From a virus (lineage: Duplodnaviria > Heunggongvirae > Uroviricota > Caudoviricetes): DNA of 64,000 nucleotides. Shown here one piece after another: positions 14,429 through 55,207 of the stretch. The position numbers and the translations under genes are program-made. Position 1 is the stretch's first letter. Each line of letters starts with the position of its first letter. Below the pieces are notes generated by a model. It worked only from the letters and a program-made list of their open reading frames with translations. It had not been told where the DNA came from and searched no databases. The DNA lies in the IMG/VR virus record IMGVR_UViG_2690316068_000002. One strand, given 5' to 3'.

Positions 14429-15073
14429 TTACTGCTTGTTGTAAACAAAACCAATATCTTTCTTGTGAGGCATATCTGCTGCGGAAAAAGCTGCGATCTT
14501 CGCGAGTCGATCACATATTTCATTTTCACGATGCCCGGCGTGACCTTTAACCCACTTCCAGCGAACATTATGTCGACTTGCAGCCTCATCCAGACGCTTC
14601 CACAGATCAACATTCTTTACCGGTTTTTTATCAGAAGTCATCCATCCATTACGTTTCCACCATTTCATCCACTGTGTCATGCCGTTTTTCAGATACTGGC
14701 TATCAGAGTACAAAATAACGTTGCATGGATATTTCAAACGCTCCAGCCCGATAAGTGCGCCCATCATCTCCATGCGGTTATTGGTGGTGCTATGAAAACC
14801 ATCTGAGAACTCGCGTTCCTCACCACGATACTGGAGAACGATACCGTAACCGCCCGGGCCACCCGGATTTTTAAGGCAAGAGCCATCACTAAAGATTTTC
14901 ACGGTTTTGAGCTGGGGATTGAACTCTACGACAGGCGTTGTGGGATTGGTGCGGGGAGATTTTTTGTTTTTGGCTTTTTTGCGAGTTTTTGCTTGCGATC
15001 GGGCTGGTGTCTTCGTCGTCATATAAACTCCTGAATCAAGCGCCGCGCCGATTTTTTCCTCGCGCGTGCGCAC
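14429..15073 (-). CDS. Ribonuclease HI with N-terminal basic extension
   Basis: [21 protein letters not shown]...[10 protein letters not shown]...[16 protein letters not shown] aligns to E. coli RNase HI catalytic residues. True start may be an internal Met. Confidence 0.8.
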
Positions 15074-15604
15074 ACGCGTGCGTGTTAATAATTATTAAAA
15101 TAAACAAATTACTTCCCAGAACAGGTTTTTATAAACCTGAACTGAACGAACGAAGTGAGTGAAGTTCACCTCGAACGAAGTGAGAGGTTGTCTTTTCAGG
15201 TAATACTCTCCCAGGGAGGTGAGTATAAAATTCCTCACCAACCTGGTCGTTTCATAACCTGAAAAGCTATGGTCTAAGTCTACTGCCAGCTTAGACTTGG
15301 GAAGTTATGGATGACAGCACCCCAGAACCGAGATCTTCCCACACTTTATGAAGGGGAGTACTGGATTCAACCTCTCGAAACACCCCAGACTCGACAATCA
15401 TAAAGTGACCCTTGTCTCTGCTCACTTTGGTTCCCCCTTCCCCGACACCTAAACGGCACCGGTTCTACGCTGGTAGTGAGCTTTTTTAAACCTGACGCCA
15501 GTGACGCTTACCCCCACCCATCAGGTCGAGTCTCCAGTCTACGACTGGAAACTATCAGATCTTAGCACTTACAATTCACTTTATAAATAGTTTGTACTTA
15601 TCTA

Positions 15605-15859
15605 TCATTGTGATTGATTATTTTCTCGACCATGTAGTTGAACATTCAAGGCAAACACCTCATTGATCAACTCACCTAAAAGCTGTTCAACAAGTTCGCG
15701 ATGCTCGCCAAGATGCAAGCACTTAATTGCCCACTCGTACAAGTTGAAAGCCTGCTCACGATCTTTCATCATTTCACGAGCCTGGGCCAGAAAATCGCTC
15801 TCTACGAGCGCAACGACATTAGTCGGGTATGACATGTTGGTTTCCTTAAAGTGGTTCAT
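15605..15859 (-). CDS. Hypothetical protein
   Basis: 84-aa ORF. Confidence 0.4.
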   Translation of the reverse strand: MNHFKETNMSYPTNVVALVESDFLAQAREMMKDREQAFNLYEWAIKCLHLGEHRELVEQLLGELINEVFALNVQLHGRENNQSQ

Positions 15860-16020: not shown

Positions 16021-16614
16021 CTAAGCAGCCTTCTTTGATGGTCTTTTTTTCCTGATCACATTCGCAGGATCATACCCTCCCAGACTTTTCATGACGTCCA
16101 AAGGGATCTTGCTTATAGAGTGCCCAGCGTCCTGACAGAATCCTCGAAAAACAACGAGCATACTGCCACCGGGGTTGATGTTTACTTCTACCTGACCCAA
16201 ATTGACGTCAGGCTCGACAAACGCTACGCGGCCACCAGACAGAATAATCGTCTCATTCGCATACTCTGTTGCACGCTCATACCACTTTGTATCGAGGGAT
16301 TGAGGAATTAGCATCACTGTTGTAACTCCGCGAGCCTGCTCACGTATAGCAGCATCAATCCAGGGGGAGATTTTGGAGTAGGGTGGATTGAGGAAGGCAA
16401 TTGTACCTGGCTGTCCCCATTCAGATTTCAAAGCATCACGCTCAATGCCTATGAAATTAGGCAGCTTTGCGTTGTCCTTGTTGCAGGCAACGTCAACATC
16501 AAATGTCACTCCAAGATAACGTTGAATGGCAGAAAACAGCCAATCAGGTGTTCTCCAGAGGTCACGAAGAGAGTTGTCGCGCTTTCGCTGTTTGATTTTT
16601 TCGGCTGCAATCAT
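16021..16614 (-). CDS. Phage Dam-family N6-adenine DNA methyltransferase
   Basis: 197 aa; NPPYS catalytic motif. Confidence 0.7.
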   Translation of the reverse strand: MIAAEKIKQRKRDNSLRDLWRTPDWLFSAIQRYLGVTFDVDVACNKDNAKLPNFIGIERDALKSEWGQPGTIAFLNPPYSKISPWIDAAIREQARGVTTVMLIPQSLDTKWYERATEYANETIILSGGRVAFVEPDVNLGQVEVNINPGGSMLVVFRGFCQDAGHSISKIPLDVMKSLGGYDPANVIRKKRPSKKAA

Positions 16615-32663: not shown

Positions 32664-32750
32664 ATGTCATTTTTCTGTGATTGTTAGCCGAGGCAACGAT
32701 AACCCACCAGGTGCGCCGAAGGTAGTAAATGCCTGTTTTAATTATTCACA

Positions 32751-32759
32751 TTATCCACA
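32751..32759. promoter_or_regulatory. DnaA box (consensus 9-mer)
   Basis: TTATCCACA perfect match, just upstream of GATC cluster and iterons. Confidence 0.6.
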
Positions 32760-32764
32760 GGATA

Positions 32765-32823
32765 GATCCTAATAAAGAGATCCATAGATAGATCCTTGTA
32801 TAGATCAAATAAGATCCCCGATC
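32765..32823. promoter_or_regulatory. GATC (Dam-site) cluster in AT-rich origin region
   Basis: Six GATC sites within about 59 bp, several within AGATCC heptamers. Confidence 0.65.
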
Positions 32824-32864
32824 GCTGTAAGCCGCGCCACGACTGGTCTGAAGCCATGTTCATG

Positions 32865-32965
32865 TATGCTGTCAGCGGTAATTGATAGTCTGTCAGCGGT
32901 TCACCGTATGCTGCCAACTGTTTTTGGTATTCTGTCAGCGGCAAATCAAGTATGCTGTCAGCGGT
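32865..32965. repeat. Origin iterons, upstream set (5 direct repeats, about 21-bp periodicity)
   Basis: TATGCTGTCAGCGGT and variants starting at about 32865, 32886, 32907, 32928, 32951. Confidence 0.85.
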
Positions 32966-32985
32966 TGAATGACAAAGGTGTCCAC

Positions 32986-34080
32986 ATGTCCACAAAAAAT
33001 AAAAAAGGTAAAAATAACAAAGAAGTAGAAGATAACATCGACAACTTTGAAGAAGGTTCCCTTGAATTGTACACAGGGGAACTTGTCCCTAATAGCAACA
33101 ATACAGTCCAACCAATTGCGTTGATGCGACTGGGGTTGTTCGTCCCCACGCTTAAGGGAACAAAATACAGTAAACGTAACAAGCCAAATGAGATCGATGC
33201 TTCAAAGGAGCTTGTCCAGCTCGAAGTAGCCCGTTCTGAAGGCTATTCCGATATCAAGATAACCGGCCCTCGCCTGGACATGGATCATGATTTCAAAACG
33301 TGGGTGGGCGTTGTGCGTTCGCTGGCAGAATACGGCGAACCTAATGGTCGTGTCGAGTTAAGCATCACGAAATTTGCGAAGTTTTGTGGCTATCCATCGT
33401 CACAGATCCGCAAAACACTCCGCGACCGGCTTACAAACAGTCTTTTGAAGATCATGCGTACAACTCTGTCTTTCCAGAGAACGTATGAAGAAAAGAACGT
33501 CGACGGCTCTAACAAGATCTCGCTTCTGATGGTGCACCTCATCAATAGCGTGGACTACAACGAGCAGAAAGATACGGTGGTGTTCTATGCAGAACCGAAG
33601 CTGGCCGAACTATATCGCTTTGACCATAAGGTTCTTTTGCAGTTAAAGGTTATCAATAAGCTACCACGCAAAGAAACAGCACAGGCTCTGTACACCTTCA
33701 TCGAAAGTCTTCCAACCAAGCCTGCGCCGGTATCGCTTGCTCGATTGCGTGCGCGACTCAATTTGAGTAGCAGGAATGTCAGCTCGCAGAATCAGACTAT
33801 ACGTAACGGCTTAAAAGCTCTCCAAGATTTGGGCTATCTCGAATACAGCGAGATTAAGCGTGGGCGGTCGATCTATATCCAGATTCACAGCCGCAATCCA
33901 AAACTCAAAGTCGCACCGCCAAAACCTGAAGACATCGAACCCAAAAAACCAGATGAGAAAGCTGGGGAAATTGATGCCAAACAGAACATTATCAACAAGA
34001 TAACCGAACTTTCGCAGAATTTGACGCCTGAAAATATCAAGATGATTGAGATCCTTTCCAATAGTCTCAAACTGCTTTGA
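32986..34080 (+). CDS. repA: Plasmid-type replication initiator (iteron-binding Rep)
   Basis: 364 aa from internal ATG 32986; flanked by iteron sets, DnaA box and GATC cluster. Family assignment by architecture and recalled similarity. Confidence 0.75.
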   Translation: MSTKNKKGKNNKEVEDNIDNFEEGSLELYTGELVPNSNNTVQPIALMRLGLFVPTLKGTKYSKRNKPNEIDASKELVQLEVARSEGYSDIKITGPRLDMDHDFKTWVGVVRSLAEYGEPNGRVELSITKFAKFCGYPSSQIRKTLRDRLTNSLLKIMRTTLSFQRTYEEKNVDGSNKISLLMVHLINSVDYNEQKDTVVFYAEPKLAELYRFDHKVLLQLKVINKLPRKETAQALYTFIESLPTKPAPVSLARLRARLNLSSRNVSSQNQTIRNGLKALQDLGYLEYSEIKRGRSIYIQIHSRNPKLKVAPPKPEDIEPKKPDEKAGEIDAKQNIINKITELSQNLTPENIKMIEILSNSLKLL

Positions 34081-42448: not shown

Positions 42449-42754
42449 TCTGTTCTCTGTAAAGGTGTCTGGCATCGTCTGGTTCGTTAACGTTTACTAA
42501 ACCAATGGTGACAAAAATTAGTTATCTTTGAAAAATAAAGGTTGCATGAAAAGAAGGGGTATGCGTTAATAGCATCGTTGGTTTGCAAGACAGACCTTAT
42601 GTAAGCAGTTTTAGTAAAGCAGTCTCAGTTCAGTGTTATCTTCTGATTTCCCTTCTTCGTGAGTCTCCTCCTTAAGTGCCTAAGTAAGTCCCAATCTATA
42701 CAGATCAAATTCTCGCCGCACTATGTGGCTCACAAAATTAAGAAGGTAATATCT

Positions 42755-42970
42755 ATGTCTAATAAAATGACTGGTTTAGTAAAATGGTTTAACTCTGATA
42801 AAGGCTTTGGCTTTATTTCTCCTGCTGATGGCAGTAAAGATGTTTTTGTACATTTTTCGGCAATTCAGAGTAATAATTTCCGCACTTTGGAAGAAGGCCA
42901 GCAGGTCGAATTCTCTATCGAGAATGGGGCTAAAGGCCCAGCAGCAGCAAATGTCGTTGCTCTAAGTTGA
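42755..42970 (+). CDS. Cold-shock protein, CspA family
   Basis: 71 aa from ATG 42755; [13 protein letters not shown]...[13 protein letters not shown]-track start 42659 lies in the long leader. Confidence 0.9.
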
Positions 42971-43245
42971 TTCAACGCTGATGATCCTCATTTCTACAAT
43001 AACGAAGACGGTGTAAGCCTGAGTGGATAGATTTGTAGGATTGTACAAGTTGAATAAATTAGCATGGTAAGGCCATGCTAATTAAATCGACACAACGGCC
43101 AGTTTATTCCATAAAAGTGAATTGCCCATTGTGGCGAAATGCGGGGTTGCCGCATGAATAGTCAAAGGCAGAAGCTAACTGCCGGCATGGCAAAACAAAG
43201 TGCGTAAGAGGAGTGACTTCCTCAACAAGCGCCATAATTCTTTAT

Positions 43246-43273: not shown

Positions 43274-46200
43274 TTACTTATTTATTGTCTCCGCGATATC
43301 AGCCAGAATGGCCTCCAGTCGCTCTCCTTCTTCCGGTCGGAAGTACAGGATATTCGGGTTAAATCCGTAGAAGACGGTTGCATCAAGCTCTGGGAAGTAC
43401 TCCTTACGACCAATCAGATCTGATGGTTTACTCTTATTGTTAAATAGTGCGGTTGAACGACTACCACACGTCAAAATGTAGGTCGGACGCACCAGATTGA
43501 TCTCTTCACGCATAAAGTCGGTGAACTGGCCGATCTCGTCTTTGGTGTAGTCTTTTTCTTTGTCTTTAACCTTCTTGCAAACGCCTGTGACATAGAGATC
43601 GCCCATGCGTAAATCTCCAGCCGTCAATAGCTTGGCCTTAAAGTCGTCGTATCCGTTCTCCATGAAGTAACCGGTTCGAGCATCATTGCCGTTCGCATTG
43701 TCCAGAATGATCATGATTTTCGGCTTAATACCAATGTTGGGGCGGATTAGTTCATCACCTAAGCCCATTTCAGCCGCCATCCGTGTCATGAGCACGTTAA
43801 TCTCAGCCGAACGTTTGGGGTTCATCTCAAACGGACGTGAGGCTTTAACTGCGTCTATGACAAGGTTTCCCATCAATTCAGCCTGGTCGCGTAGGCGCTC
43901 TGGATCAGTTGCTGGCAGACTACCTGGCTCGATGGATGCAAACGCCCCTACTTTTTGCAGCGATTCGCGCACTCGACTATTACAGGCACGTTTCTCGACA
44001 GCTTCTTCGAATTGCGCCAGTGACTCGAATTTGCCGCCAACTTTTTCTCGCGCTCTCATGATGGCTTGGCAGCCATTCTCAGAACACCCCTTCACAGCAG
44101 AGAAGGGCGCATACAGCACCTGGCTGCCATCTTCAAGCGTGCGGATCTCGATTCGGTTAGATGACACGTTAACGTCTGGTGGCAATACGCGAATACCATA
44201 GGTCAGCGCATCTTTAACCAGCCCCTGGTGTTTATCTTCGCCAAGAATAGTGAGAGCAGCAGCGAAAAACTCTGCGGGATAATGAGTTTTCAACCACATA
44301 GATTGATAACTGATTAAGGAGTAGGCAACAGAGTGTGATTTATTGAACTGGTAGGCACCATTTTTTTCGAATGCGGTCCAGATCTCCTTCGCTTTCATCT
44401 CTGATAGCCCTGGATGTGACGCTGTAACGCGTACTGCGTTTATAGGTAGTTTTGCGCCGTGCTCAAGTGCCTCTTCGACAGTTTTCAGAGTTCCGTCTTC
44501 GCATTTAAAATGTTCCGCACGGTGAATGCGCTGTGTAGTGCCATCTTCCAGCTCAACGTCTATCCAGCCAGCTTGAGCCTGAACGATGAACTTCTCGCCC
44601 ATGCTCTTCATTTTTTCCATGTTCTTCTTACCGATTGCGGAACGCACACCGTCAGCTTCAGCCATTGTGAAGCCGGCAAGCAATCGAGTCGCGTTCATCG
44701 TCTGTTCCTGATAGAGAATCACGCCATTTGTTTCCGCGGTAAGTTCATCAAGAACGGGGTGTAATGATTCCGGCGTCATAAAGCCTTTGGCGACAGAAAC
44801 ATAGTCGTCCAACATGCCGGATTGGATCGGGCCAGGTCGGAAGAGTGCGGTCGTGGCGACAACGGTTTTAAAGCTCATTGGCTCAATGCCACCGCCTAGA
44901 TCTTTAAGCAGCTTGCGCATGGGGCCGGACTCCAGCTGGAATACGCCCTGTGTATACCCTGCAGCAAAACCATCCAGCACCTTGCGATCTTCAAGAGAAA
45001 TGGCATCAAGATTGATATCTTCACCTGTGTTCTCTTTTATGTAGCGTTTTGCACTATCGAGCAAATCGAGAGTTGCCAGGCCAAGCACGTCCAGCTTAAT
45101 TAGGCCCATAGCCTCGCAGTAACGCTTGTCAAATGCGATACAACGCGCGTCACCACGGCGCTCAACCGGTGTACGTTCTGTCAGAGGAACACCTGCTACA
45201 ATCATCCCTGCCGCATGTCTACCAAAGCCACGCATAAGGCTTTGTAACTTGCAGGCTGCATTGAATGCATCAGGATATTTTGTTGCGTATTTGTCGAGAC
45301 TTGCCAGTTGTTCGCGCAGCTCTTCCAATGGAAGGCTATCATCCTCGACGTTCTTCAGTTCTTTTGATACCGCCATATCTGCGGACTCCACACCATAAAT
45401 ACGAGCGGTGTCACGTAGTGCAGAGGCTGCGCCCAGGTAGGTGAAGTTCGGAATGCCTGCAACGTAATCTTCGCCGTAGCGTTCATTCAGATACTCGATC
45501 ACCTCATGGCGACGTGCCTGGCTGAAGTCCAAGTCCGCATCCGGCAAGTCGAGACGCTCAGGGTTGATGAAACGCTCAAACAGAAGACCGTGACGGATTG
45601 GGTCGACGTTGGTTATGCCTATGCACCACGCCACCAGAGAACCGGCAGAGGAACCACGACCAGGCCCGACAGGAATGCCAGTTTCACGGCTGTGATTCAT
45701 CAGATCGCGTACCATCAGGAAGTAACCACAAAATCCCAGGCGAGTCAGCGTGTTCATTTCGTACTTTAGCCGCTCAACATAAACCCTGTTCTCAGAAGCA
45801 GGTGGTGTGTATCCAAACTCTTTTGTGGTAAGACGTTTACGCAGCCCTGCAACAGCCAGTTTCATCAGCGTTGCAGGTTCGTCGTCTGCCATCTTGGGCA
45901 GTGCTGGTGGCAATTCATGCCAGCGCCATGTGCAGGCATCGATAATGGAGTCCTGCGTTGTTGAGGCCATTGCAGCTGTTACCGGCACATCCATGCGAAC
46001 GGAGAAGGCTTTAAGCGCCTCAAGGAGATGGCGACGACCATTGATGGCGTTATCTCGCTGGTGGGGGATACGCAGACGATGCGGCTGGTCGATTTTTATG
46101 TTGTTCGTAACCATGTGCGCAATGTCTTTAATGTCTGCATCGTCGATCGATTCGTAATAAGCGGGATAGAACGCTACTGGCTCTATTTTCAGTGCGCTGG

Positions 46201-54660: not shown

Positions 54661-54747
54661 TGGCGGAGAGTAATGGAATCGAACCATCATCGCTTGCGCA
54701 ATGGGACGGTTTTCAAGACCGCTTGAGCACCATGCTCCCTACTCTCC
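54661..54747 (-). tRNA. tRNA-Ser (anticodon UGA), type II
   Basis: Hand-folded: GGAGAGT/ACTCTCC acceptor, G discriminator, encoded CCA, anticodon loop CUUGAAA, long variable arm, TTCGATT T-loop. Confidence 0.75.
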
Positions 54748-54960
54748 AGTTGTTGTGGTGCCGGGGGCTTCCCGGTGTCCTTTGGCTGGTTATCCACCGT
54801 GGACGGAGCCAATAGTCATCACAAAGGATCAATATAACCATTTCCCCGCGTGCGCTTAGCCGCATTCACCACAACGAAAAGAGCACTGTATGACGTTTGC
54901 ACGGACTTACGCTTAAAACAGGGCAGTCTCGGCGGTTCTCAATGCTCTTTCCTGTTGTGT

Positions 54961-55036
54961 TGGTGCCGGTTAACGGATTCGAACCGCCGACCATTCGCTT
55001 ACAAGGCGACTGCTCTACCAACTGAGCTAAACCGGC
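54961..55036 (-). tRNA. tRNA-Thr (anticodon UGU)
   Basis: GCCGGTT/AACCGGC acceptor, encoded CCA, anticodon loop CUUGUAA, TTCGAAT T-loop. Confidence 0.75.
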
Positions 55037-55040
55037 AATT

Positions 55041-55127
55041 TGGTGGGGAGTGATGGAGTCGAACCACCCGAGTCGCAATGACAGTAGATTTACAGTCTAC
55101 ACCGCTACCTCTACGGACTAACTCCCC
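55041..55127 (-). tRNA. tRNA-Tyr (anticodon GUA), type II
   Basis: GGGGAGT/ACTCCCC acceptor, encoded CCA, anticodon stem-loop GACUGUAAAUC, long variable arm. Confidence 0.75.
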
Positions 55128-55132
55128 TAAAT

Positions 55133-55207
55133 TGGCGATGGTGGGTGGATTCGAACCACCGACCAGTTGGTTAACAGCCAACTGCTCTACCGCTGAGCTA
55201 CACCATC
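55133..55207 (-). tRNA. tRNA-Asn (anticodon GUU)
   Basis: GATGGTG/CACCATC acceptor, encoded CCA, anticodon loop CUGUUAA, TTCGAAT T-loop. Confidence 0.75.

Follow-up and report, generated by a model that had tools for sequence, protein, structure and literature searches.

The stretch of DNA analysed here (the window) comprises 64,000 nucleotides (nt) of the virus record IMGVR_UViG_2690316068_000002 and contains a non-coding gap at positions 15023-15604, between the genes for RNase HI and for a small protein of 76 amino acids (aa). Over 1.7 kb around the element in this gap, it shows 98% identity to the Escherichia phages CMS-2020a, Cyrano and PhiR41_1 and approximately 80% identity to Salmonella phage SSU5, and the window is therefore an SSU5/pHCM2-type phage-plasmid. 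The local genes are all located on the minus strand in the order Dam-like methylase, 76-aa protein, gap, RNase HI and TciA/TciB-like genes. The element is placed among genes of replication and nucleotide metabolism. An earlier note on this DNA, made from the letters alone, had pointed to positions 15074-15604 as a structured region next to RNase H and had named a structured non-coding RNA (ncRNA) or a lytic origin as candidates. The region indeed adjoins RNase HI, and the span was slightly offset, with the conserved element extending from about 15096 to 15587. Our analysis strongly supports the first candidate. We assign a probability of about 0.85 to the minus strand from about 15552 to 15096 being an independent structured RNA gene of SSU5/pHCM2-type phage-plasmids. 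This rests on covariation, strand-specific G-U pairs, a conserved promoter, conservation far above that of the flanking genes and published RNA-seq data.

Covariation, strand and fold of the RNA

The gap had been described as free of open reading frames (ORFs) of 60 aa or more on both strands. This is nearly right, but a 74-aa ORF with a TTG start on the plus strand (14938-15162) covers the first 89 nt of the reported region; all other ORFs are shorter than 50 aa. The nested stem-loops that had been noticed are present as 23 inverted-repeat pairs, and both strands of the gap fold better than shuffled sequences (z = -3.7 and -3.5; 0 of 100 shuffles equal).

For the consensus fold, RNAalifold was applied to 28 sequences and gave 128 base pairs, with 99.4% of the cells paired and compensatory double changes in 12 pairs. 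The observed covariation score was matched by none of 500 shuffles, and slid controls paired just 37-49%. By tracing homologues of the 76-aa protein into other assemblies, RNA homologues down to approximately 68% identity were found (loci L248, L256, L250 and L251). One contig (L257, from logan SRR8137545) was excluded because C-to-T changes run through all of it and its translation does not give the query protein; bisulfite-like or damaged data in a public assembly are the probable cause of this artefact. In an alignment of 17 sequences which includes the homologues of approximately 68% identity, 36 of the 128 pairs are changed on both sides, as compared to at most 10 such pairs in slid controls, and for each of five measures all 500 shuffles stayed below the value observed. 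The fold consists of approximately 18 helices, 11 of them backed by compensatory substitutions.

Canonical pairing reaches 99.3% on the minus strand versus 88% for the mirror image on the plus strand, and G-U cells number 410 versus 6. Evolutionary intermediates of the type UA to UG to CG pair in the minus-strand RNA only. Since the G-U pairs fit the minus strand only, the RNA is read from this strand. A plus-strand hairpin followed by a T-run near 15480 had also been reported. The sequence is real (GCTCAC at 15420-15425, GTGAGC at 15476-15481 and six T at 15482-15487) but belongs to the minus-strand helix H3 and to an A-run linker (15482-15487) just upstream of it on the RNA, and its U-G intermediates pair solely on the minus strand.

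Several helices change their sequence and keep their pairing (Table 1). In H3, CUCAC/GUGAG is replaced by CCUGC/GCAGG in L256 and L248, accounting for 3 compensatory pairs, and H4 varies via GU, GC and AU. H11 covaries from UGGGAAG:CUUCCCA to AGGAAGG:CCUUCCU, H13 from GUCUAAGCUG:UAGCUUAGAC to GCAGAGACUG:UGGUCUCUGC, and the 3' hairpin H18 shows compensatory changes of UU/AA to GG/CC.

The motif CCUCUCACUUCGUUCGAGG is invariant in all but three positions, with the invariant run CTCTCACT.CGTTCGAG; variants occur in L250, which has ACUC at the start and GAGA at the end, and in L248, which has CACUCC. It may form a 4-bp hairpin presenting an 11-nt loop. An alternative hairpin of CCUC with GAGG is kept in L248 and L256, and L250 has a related CUCUC/GAGAG pairing, which is not adopted in its minimum-free-energy fold. 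The motif also includes one copy of a 13-nt repeat. The earlier note had described tandem CGAACGAAGTGAG repeats, which turned out to be two exact direct copies 25 nt apart (15147-15159 and 15172-15184), not tandem ones, and Tandem Repeats Finder reported nothing in the region. The G-rich motif could pair with the CCUCUCACUUC motif in 9 of 11 pairs, where no clear covariation is seen.

Promoter, 3' end and transcription in lysogens

A -35 box and an extended -10 box were identified immediately after the stop codon of the gene for the 76-aa protein. The spacer between the two boxes is exactly 17 nt in all 57 unique sequences, though it occurs in 18 versions, and the TG at -15/-14 is found in 48 of the 57. 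This pattern shows that the element has a conserved sigma-70 promoter of its own. The RNA start expected from it, at approximately 15552, coincides with the 5' hairpin, whose stem is always kept while its sequence is different in each lineage. At the other end, the sequence of the tail is variable, but almost every lineage has a tail rich in U, the L059/L258 lineage least so. Together with H18 it forms a probable terminator of atypical kind.

The spacer between this tail and RNase H is poorly conserved, contains insertions and deletions, varies in length and is the least conserved part of the gap. On the RNA-sense strand it folds no better than shuffles in three of four lineages. Here lies the GC-rich palindrome that had been noticed, a perfectly alternating pyrimidine-purine tract of 24 nt (15061-15084). 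The tract, located between the RNA 3' end and the ribosome-binding site of RNase H, is prone to form Z-DNA or a hairpin, and its length varies, being 6 nt longer in L068 and 16 nt shorter in L039. With the T-rich run after it on the plus strand, it could by its sequence terminate antisense transcription.

Transcription from the homologous position was found in published RNA-seq data of the phage Cyrano, whose record annotates a hypothetical protein of 44 aa (CYRAN_81) inside the element. This ORF maps to window positions 15425-15291 on the minus strand and lies 12-fold above local background in Cyrano lysogens (PMC9928086, Table 1 and S1 Table). Over five conditions, its log2(fpkm+5) values (fpkm, fragments per kilobase per million mapped reads) are 6.8-10.35, as compared to 3.1-5.8 for the flanking small-protein gene CYRAN_80 and 2.6-5.0 for the flanking RNase H gene CYRAN_82; the putative repressor CYRAN_45 has values similar to CYRAN_81, 6.4-10.35 (PMC9928086, S1 Table). 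RNA thus accumulates from this spot in lysogens while the flanking lytic genes are silent. RNA-seq had been proposed in the earlier note, together with a covariance-model scan, and these data provide a signal at the expected spot.

A small-protein gene was considered for CYRAN_81 and rejected, as the ORF is frame-shifted in L034 and L059 and interrupted by stop codons in L069 and L068. The conservation shows no three-base periodicity, and insertions and deletions of 1-2 nt are tolerated. The 'moron' CYRAN_81 is therefore probably this RNA and not a protein, which corrects the published reading. In the same data set, the 'hypothetical proteins' CYRAN_43 and CYRAN_40 (Cyrano OV696614, 40268-40822 and 39144-39356) are transcribed 723-fold and 15-fold above background in lysogens (PMC9928086, S1 Table). 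They may be further mis-annotated RNAs or important genes of the carrier state.

Conservation, distribution and a second RNA type

In a sliding comparison of seven lineages, the core of the element (15110-15531) shows 90-100% identity versus mostly 70-83% for the flanking coding sequences. Compared with the Klebsiella plasmid pKPHS1, identity is 95% over positions 15101-15500 and rises to 97% in the best windows of 200 nt. These values place the RNA core ahead of every other 200-nt and 400-nt window in the 64 kb. The aligned half of the 64 kb averages 75%, and the next most conserved stretch (45400-45900) shows 86-88% identity. As judged from these identities, no protein gene of the window is under purifying selection as strong as that on the RNA.

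The element is present on 687 plasmids of the PLSDB database, from Klebsiella, Escherichia, Enterobacter, Salmonella, Citrobacter, Cronobacter and others. The matching records include Salmonella plasmids of approximately 106.7 kb, which is the size of pHCM2, and Klebsiella phage-plasmids, e.g., pKPHS1, carrying blaCTX-M-14. It was also found in 232 of 5426 complete E. coli genomes, in all of them unannotated, and neither the RefSeq nor the PLSDB gene tables hold an annotation at this spot. For other phage groups, blastn in distant mode returned SSU5-like records only, besides chance matches of 20-40 nt, and a search of the genome collection with RNase H gave host rnhA genes only. Among nine further phage RNase H loci (L074-L082), eight have a gap of at most 68 nt upstream of the gene, and L080 has 363 nt after an opposite-strand ORF. 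From this comparison, an RNA-sized gap before the RNase H gene seems to be peculiar to these phage-plasmids.

The covariance-model scan with Rfam 15 (4227 models, including GOLLD, ROOL, C4, 6S, RNase P, tmRNA, group I and II introns and riboswitches) gave no match in the region at gathering score. With E values up to 10 allowed, short spurious hairpins come out on top, scoring 12.8-21.4 bits versus gathering scores of 37-79. Literature on SSU5 or pHCM2 was searched in combination with ncRNA, small RNA or origin, and no description of the element was found. The large RNA is new in that we found it described neither in Rfam nor in RefSeq annotation nor in the searchable literature.

The gene of the 76-aa protein is located directly upstream of the RNA in every phage-plasmid locus that can be checked on that side. 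The protein has no Pfam match and no Foldseek match against the PDB at E below 6; AlphaFold predicts a three-helix fold with a predicted local distance difference test (pLDDT) value of 80. A role as a Rop-like RNA binder was considered and dropped for want of supporting evidence.

A different RNA occupies the same slot in Klebsiella phage-plasmids of the pKpn/pCAV type (L164, L165, approximately 30 plasmids). The order of methylase, small protein, gap, RNase H and TerB/TciA is kept in these elements, and the small protein is 46-51% identical to the 76-aa protein of the window. The gap of 500-600 nt contains a structured RNA on the gene-sense strand, here called type-2 in distinction from the type-1 RNA of the window. 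In an alignment of 8 type-2 sequences, 15 of 142 pairs are compensatory, and 124 G-U cells stand against 6 A-C cells. The type-2 RNA has an internal covarying hairpin followed by a terminator with a run of seven U. A profile of type 1 run with nhmmer at maximum sensitivity found nothing in the type-2 loci tested (L164, L165 and L253), and neither the divergent type-1 homologues nor the type-2 RNAs have an Rfam match in the RNA region. Directly behind the small gene, types 1 and 2 seem to share a similar arrangement of promoter elements.

Locus L253 (1426-2137) combines a small protein that is 70% identical to that of the window with a divergent type-2 RNA, which matches the type-2 profile (nhmmer, 1e-21) and not type 1. 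Therefore the RNA type is not tied to the ancestry of the flanking genes, and the RNA seems to move as a 'cassette' independently of them. In type-2 loci (L164:2390-2420 and relatives), a covarying 5' hairpin stands right after the -10 box and is followed by AAAUUUUUU. From its sequence this looks like an intrinsic terminator at the start of the transcript, which may stop read-through from upstream and let an RNA that is started inside the stem escape.

Table 1 Features of the RNA locus in the window and of the second RNA type
Feature	Position	Strand	Remarks
Dam-like methylase gene	16021-16614	-	
Gene for 76-aa helical protein	15605-15835	-	phrog_5343, function unknown
-35 box	15587-15582	-	TTTATA here, TTnAnn in all relatives; TT[TC]A.. 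in 57/57 unique sequences
Extended -10 box	15559..15567	-	TG 15567-15566, TAAGAT 15564-15559; hexamer TA[AGC][AG]AT in 57/57
Structured ncRNA, ~455 nt	about 15552 to 15096	-	5' end placed from promoter, 3' end from U-rich tail
H1, 5'-terminal hairpin	15529..15553	-	stem kept, sequence lineage-specific; 4/5 pairs changed on both sides
H2, long hairpin	15489..15527	-	invariant GGGUGG.GG run; 5/15 pairs compensatory
H3-closed domain (GCUCAC/GUGAGC)	15420..15481	-	with H4 and invariant G-rich GGGGAAGGGGGAACC (15441-15427)
Central multi-helix domain, H8-H15	15193..15418	-	invariant internal loop GAUCUCGGUUCU
H8	15407-15398 with 15351-15342	-	7 compensatory pairs
H11	UGGGAAG 15341-15335 with CUUCCCA 15304-15298	-	3 compensatory pairs
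H13	15296-15272	-	5 compensatory pairs
H14/H15	15265-15193	-	H15: 2 compensatory pairs; H14: none on 17 sequences
Motif CCUCUCACUUCGUUCGAGG	15172..15190	-	near-unchanged in all type-1 sequences including the most divergent
Second copy of 13-nt repeat	15147..15159	-	exact in main clade only; 7 nt deleted in L248, L256
RNA 3' end	15096..15145	-	hairpin H18 (15145-15116), conserved CUGGGAAGUAA, U-rich tail 15108-15097
Spacer to RNase H	15023..15095		variable AT-rich stretch, palindrome 15061-15084, GC-rich hairpin, RNase H ribosome-binding site
RNase HI gene, 197 aa	14429-15022	-	Lys-rich N-terminal tail; neighbour of the RNA, not part of it; Pfam RNase_H 1.2e-45; phrog_531
Type-2 RNA, ~500 nt	L164:2348-2900, L165:2359-2900, also L240-L246		between small protein and RNase H

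Relation to RNase H and proposed mode of action

The RNA also occurs apart from RNase H. In L251, a Buttiauxella plasmid, an opposite-strand helicase gene follows within approximately 150 nt after the RNA instead of RNase H, and in L261 an opposite-strand 189-aa gene stands directly after the RNA, with the contig ending at the edge of the locus. Replacement of RNase H by an opposite-strand gene is thus shown in L251 and probable in L261.

These loci bear on the alternative that survives best, which we nevertheless regard as unlikely. According to it, the RNA is a cis-acting leader or attenuator whose terminator holds RNase H and the downstream genes off in lysogeny and is read through after induction, resembling phage P4 immunity or riboswitch-type control. 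The lysogen-active promoter followed by silent co-directional genes (CYRAN_82 at background), the position of RNase H directly downstream in most type-1 and type-2 loci and the hairpin with U-rich tail at the 3' end would fit such a leader. However, constant same-strand linkage fails, as no co-directional gene is left to regulate in L251 and, with the caveat of the contig edge, in L261. The spacer to RNase H is poorly conserved and variable in length, and the RNA shows no complementarity to the downstream sequence. As for a switch, CUUCCCA could pair with either UGGGAAG copy, but H11 covaries and the 3' copy does not follow.

A ColE1-like origin primer is very unlikely. Such an RNA would hybridise as an R-loop near the AT-/GC-rich spacer and be cut by RNase H to prime lytic or plasmid replication. 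ColE1 RNA II is likewise a structured, plasmid-borne RNA of approximately 450-550 nt with an always-on promoter, and RNase H takes part in the ColE1 system. The RNA described here, likewise structured and of approximately 455 nt, is made from a promoter active throughout lysogeny, has G runs on the RNA strand, usually has RNase H as the next gene and an AT-rich stretch just past its 3' end, and is located among replication and nucleotide-metabolism genes. Against this stands the loss of the RNase H adjacency in L251 and probably L261. No counterpart of the antisense RNA I was found, since no antisense promoter of this kind occurs on the plus strand inside the RNA and plus-strand promoter-like sites, all directed away from the RNA, occur at 15546 or beyond only. 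On the plus strand, the hairpin with T-run (15420-15487) has A-C mismatches at the sites of the minus-strand G-U pairs. Lysogens, in which lytic replication is off, make the RNA, and conservation within the gap is lowest in the presumed origin DNA (15023-15095). GC skew shows no inflection at 15 kb, and the plasmid replicon, of the IncFIB repA type, is located 17.5 kb away (repA 32866-34077, DnaA boxes 32742-32759). The lytic origin proposed in the earlier note from the neighbouring RNase H is likewise not supported, with neither GC-skew inflection nor DnaA boxes nor an iteron array at the locus and with the RNA kept in L251, and probably in L261, where RNase H does not directly follow.

Still less probable is an element that acts as DNA, i.e., as a protein-bound origin with iterons, a partition site or a packaging site, with the RNA being incidental. 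The 13-nt direct repeats, the GC-rich palindrome and the AT-rich stretch would suit a DNA site, but there are just two repeat copies, one of which is missing in the divergent homologues L248 and L256. No DnaA box with at most one mismatch was found in 15000-15650, and the boxes cluster at 32742-32759 beside repA, so the region does not have the three or more iterons and/or the DnaA boxes next to an AT-rich unwinding region by which an iteron- or DnaA-dependent origin is recognised. Moreover, the substitutions keep RNA base pairs with G-U intermediates on one strand only, and the conserved block is bounded by the promoter and the U-rich tail. The least probable explanation, an RNA antitoxin or partner of the downstream nuclease in the layout of type III toxin-antitoxin systems (promoter, RNA, leaky terminator, nuclease gene), agrees with the gene order and with an abundant RNA and a low downstream gene in RNA-seq, but Tandem Repeats Finder gave no tandem repeat array, repeats of approximately 34-36 nt being the criterion of the family, the downstream protein is an ordinary RNase HI and not an RNase of the ToxN type (ToxN, AbiQ, CptN), and the RNA persists in L251, probably also in L261, with no RNase H directly downstream.

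As for antisense targets, perfect complements in the rest of the window extend to at most 12 nt, and those of this length occur 3 times versus a mean of 3.5 for shuffled RNA, which is the level of chance; the scan covered the 64-kb window, and approximately 44 kb of the phage-plasmid lie outside it.

As a whole, the findings are best explained by a free-standing ncRNA gene which acts in trans in the plasmid-prophage state, and we consider this explanation somewhat favoured by the evidence; for a mode of action in trans by binding a partner, we would put the chance slightly below even. Before reaching RNase H, transcription would stop at the 3' hairpin with its U-rich tail. During the plasmid-prophage state, the RNA would act through its fold and through invariant exposed segments, for which GGGUGG.GG, GGGGAAGGGGGAACC, GAUCUCGGUUCU and the CUCACUUCGUUC loop are candidates. 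Its partner would be nearly identical across the Enterobacteriaceae, either a host factor or a conserved protein of the phage-plasmids, and pairing with an mRNA of the phage-plasmid would not be its mode of action. Types 1 and 2 would be type-specific versions of one role. A sequence-unrelated RNA in the same slot suggests a type-specific function such as immunity, incompatibility or anti-defence. That two alternative, swappable large RNAs at a fixed slot represent a new class of RNA machine which sets element-specific behaviour in the carrier state is a more speculative and rather unlikely idea.

Several observations weigh against the reading of the locus as an independent, trans-acting RNA gene. 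Within the main clade, no variation occurs in the long-range helices H6/H7 or in H16/H17 near the 3' end, and these helices fail in the divergent homologues. Both ends of the RNA are predicted from the promoter and the tail, and the 3' element, which a simple terminator scan did not call, is non-canonical as a terminator. For either RNA type, and in the majority of lineages, the next gene is RNase H, and a functional link between it and the RNA is possible. The extreme conservation could in part be explained by recombination at the edge of a variable region. The published expression study is silent on whether the read counts were strand-specific (PMC9928086). The trans-acting mode itself is reached by exclusion, with function and partner being putative.

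Among known RNAs, the one described here appears closest in kind to GOLLD and ROOL and seems to be a member of neither family. These, too, are large and structured, exceed 400 nt and have many helices and an unknown function, and phages or prophages often carry them (PMC5737381, PMC12286853). All three are free-standing genes between protein genes on phage genomes and were recognised by covariation and not by a phenotype. The two known families, with sizes of roughly 580 and 800 nt versus approximately 455 nt here, stem from Lactobacillales and from bacteria of the rumen and of lakes. In contrast to them, the present RNA belongs to Enterobacteriaceae phage-plasmids and is made in the lysogenic plasmid state; it has no sequence or structure match to any of the 4227 Rfam families, GOLLD and ROOL included. 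For these two, multi-copy closed cages have been reported by cryo-electron microscopy (PMC12286853).

There is also a resemblance to the immunity RNAs of phage-plasmids and satellites, c4 of P1/P7, CI of P4 and CA of N15. Each of these RNAs likewise has a promoter of its own from which it is made in the lysogen, with silent lytic genes downstream. Related elements differ in the sequence of the immunity RNA according to type, as can be compared with types 1 and 2 here. The immunity RNAs are 70-90 nt long and act by short complementarity to nearby targets. In contrast, the RNA described here has approximately 455 nt, no complementary target in the 64-kb window and no match to Rfam C4, and it persists without a downstream operon in L251 and probably L261.

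E. coli, Salmonella and Klebsiella belong to the most thoroughly studied bacteria, and it is rare that a large RNA has gone undescribed in them. With the strongest selection in the window and expression in the carrier state, this RNA is a strong candidate for a key role in the persistence of the element. If the more speculative idea of a new class of RNA machine is true, the RNAs could provide RNA-based immunity or incompatibility, capture a host factor or form an ornate self-assembling particle similar to ROOL and GOLLD, and this in E. coli, Klebsiella and Salmonella, which are easily handled genetically. Experimental systems are at hand with Cyrano in strain LF82 and PhiR41_1 in K-12.

The genes downstream of the RNA differ by lineage, which places the RNA at the edge of a variable region. 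In L251 (2895-4231) this region contains the opposite-strand gene pair with Gabija-like Pfam domains, i.e., an OLD-type TOPRIM ATPase and a UvrD-type helicase. A weak Tad2-like Pfam match is located downstream of the RNA in L248 (3605-3916), an Ant anti-repressor in SSU5 (L002:4266-5000) and Rha in L164 (4831-5619). The variable region beside the RNA may hold defence or anti-defence genes.

Elsewhere in the window, positions 32742-34077 comprise an IncFIB-type repA gene (83% amino-acid identity to RepA of pKPHS1) preceded by two adjacent DnaA boxes, which is the region of the replication origin for the plasmid state of the element. A strong Rfam match to the cspA thermoregulator (187 bits) was found at 42577-42994 on the plus strand, and the phage-plasmid therefore has a gene of the cold-shock type as well as the 5' leader that regulates this gene. 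Four tRNA genes (Ser-TGA, Thr-TGT, Tyr-GTA and Asn-GTT) are clustered on the minus strand at 54661-55207.

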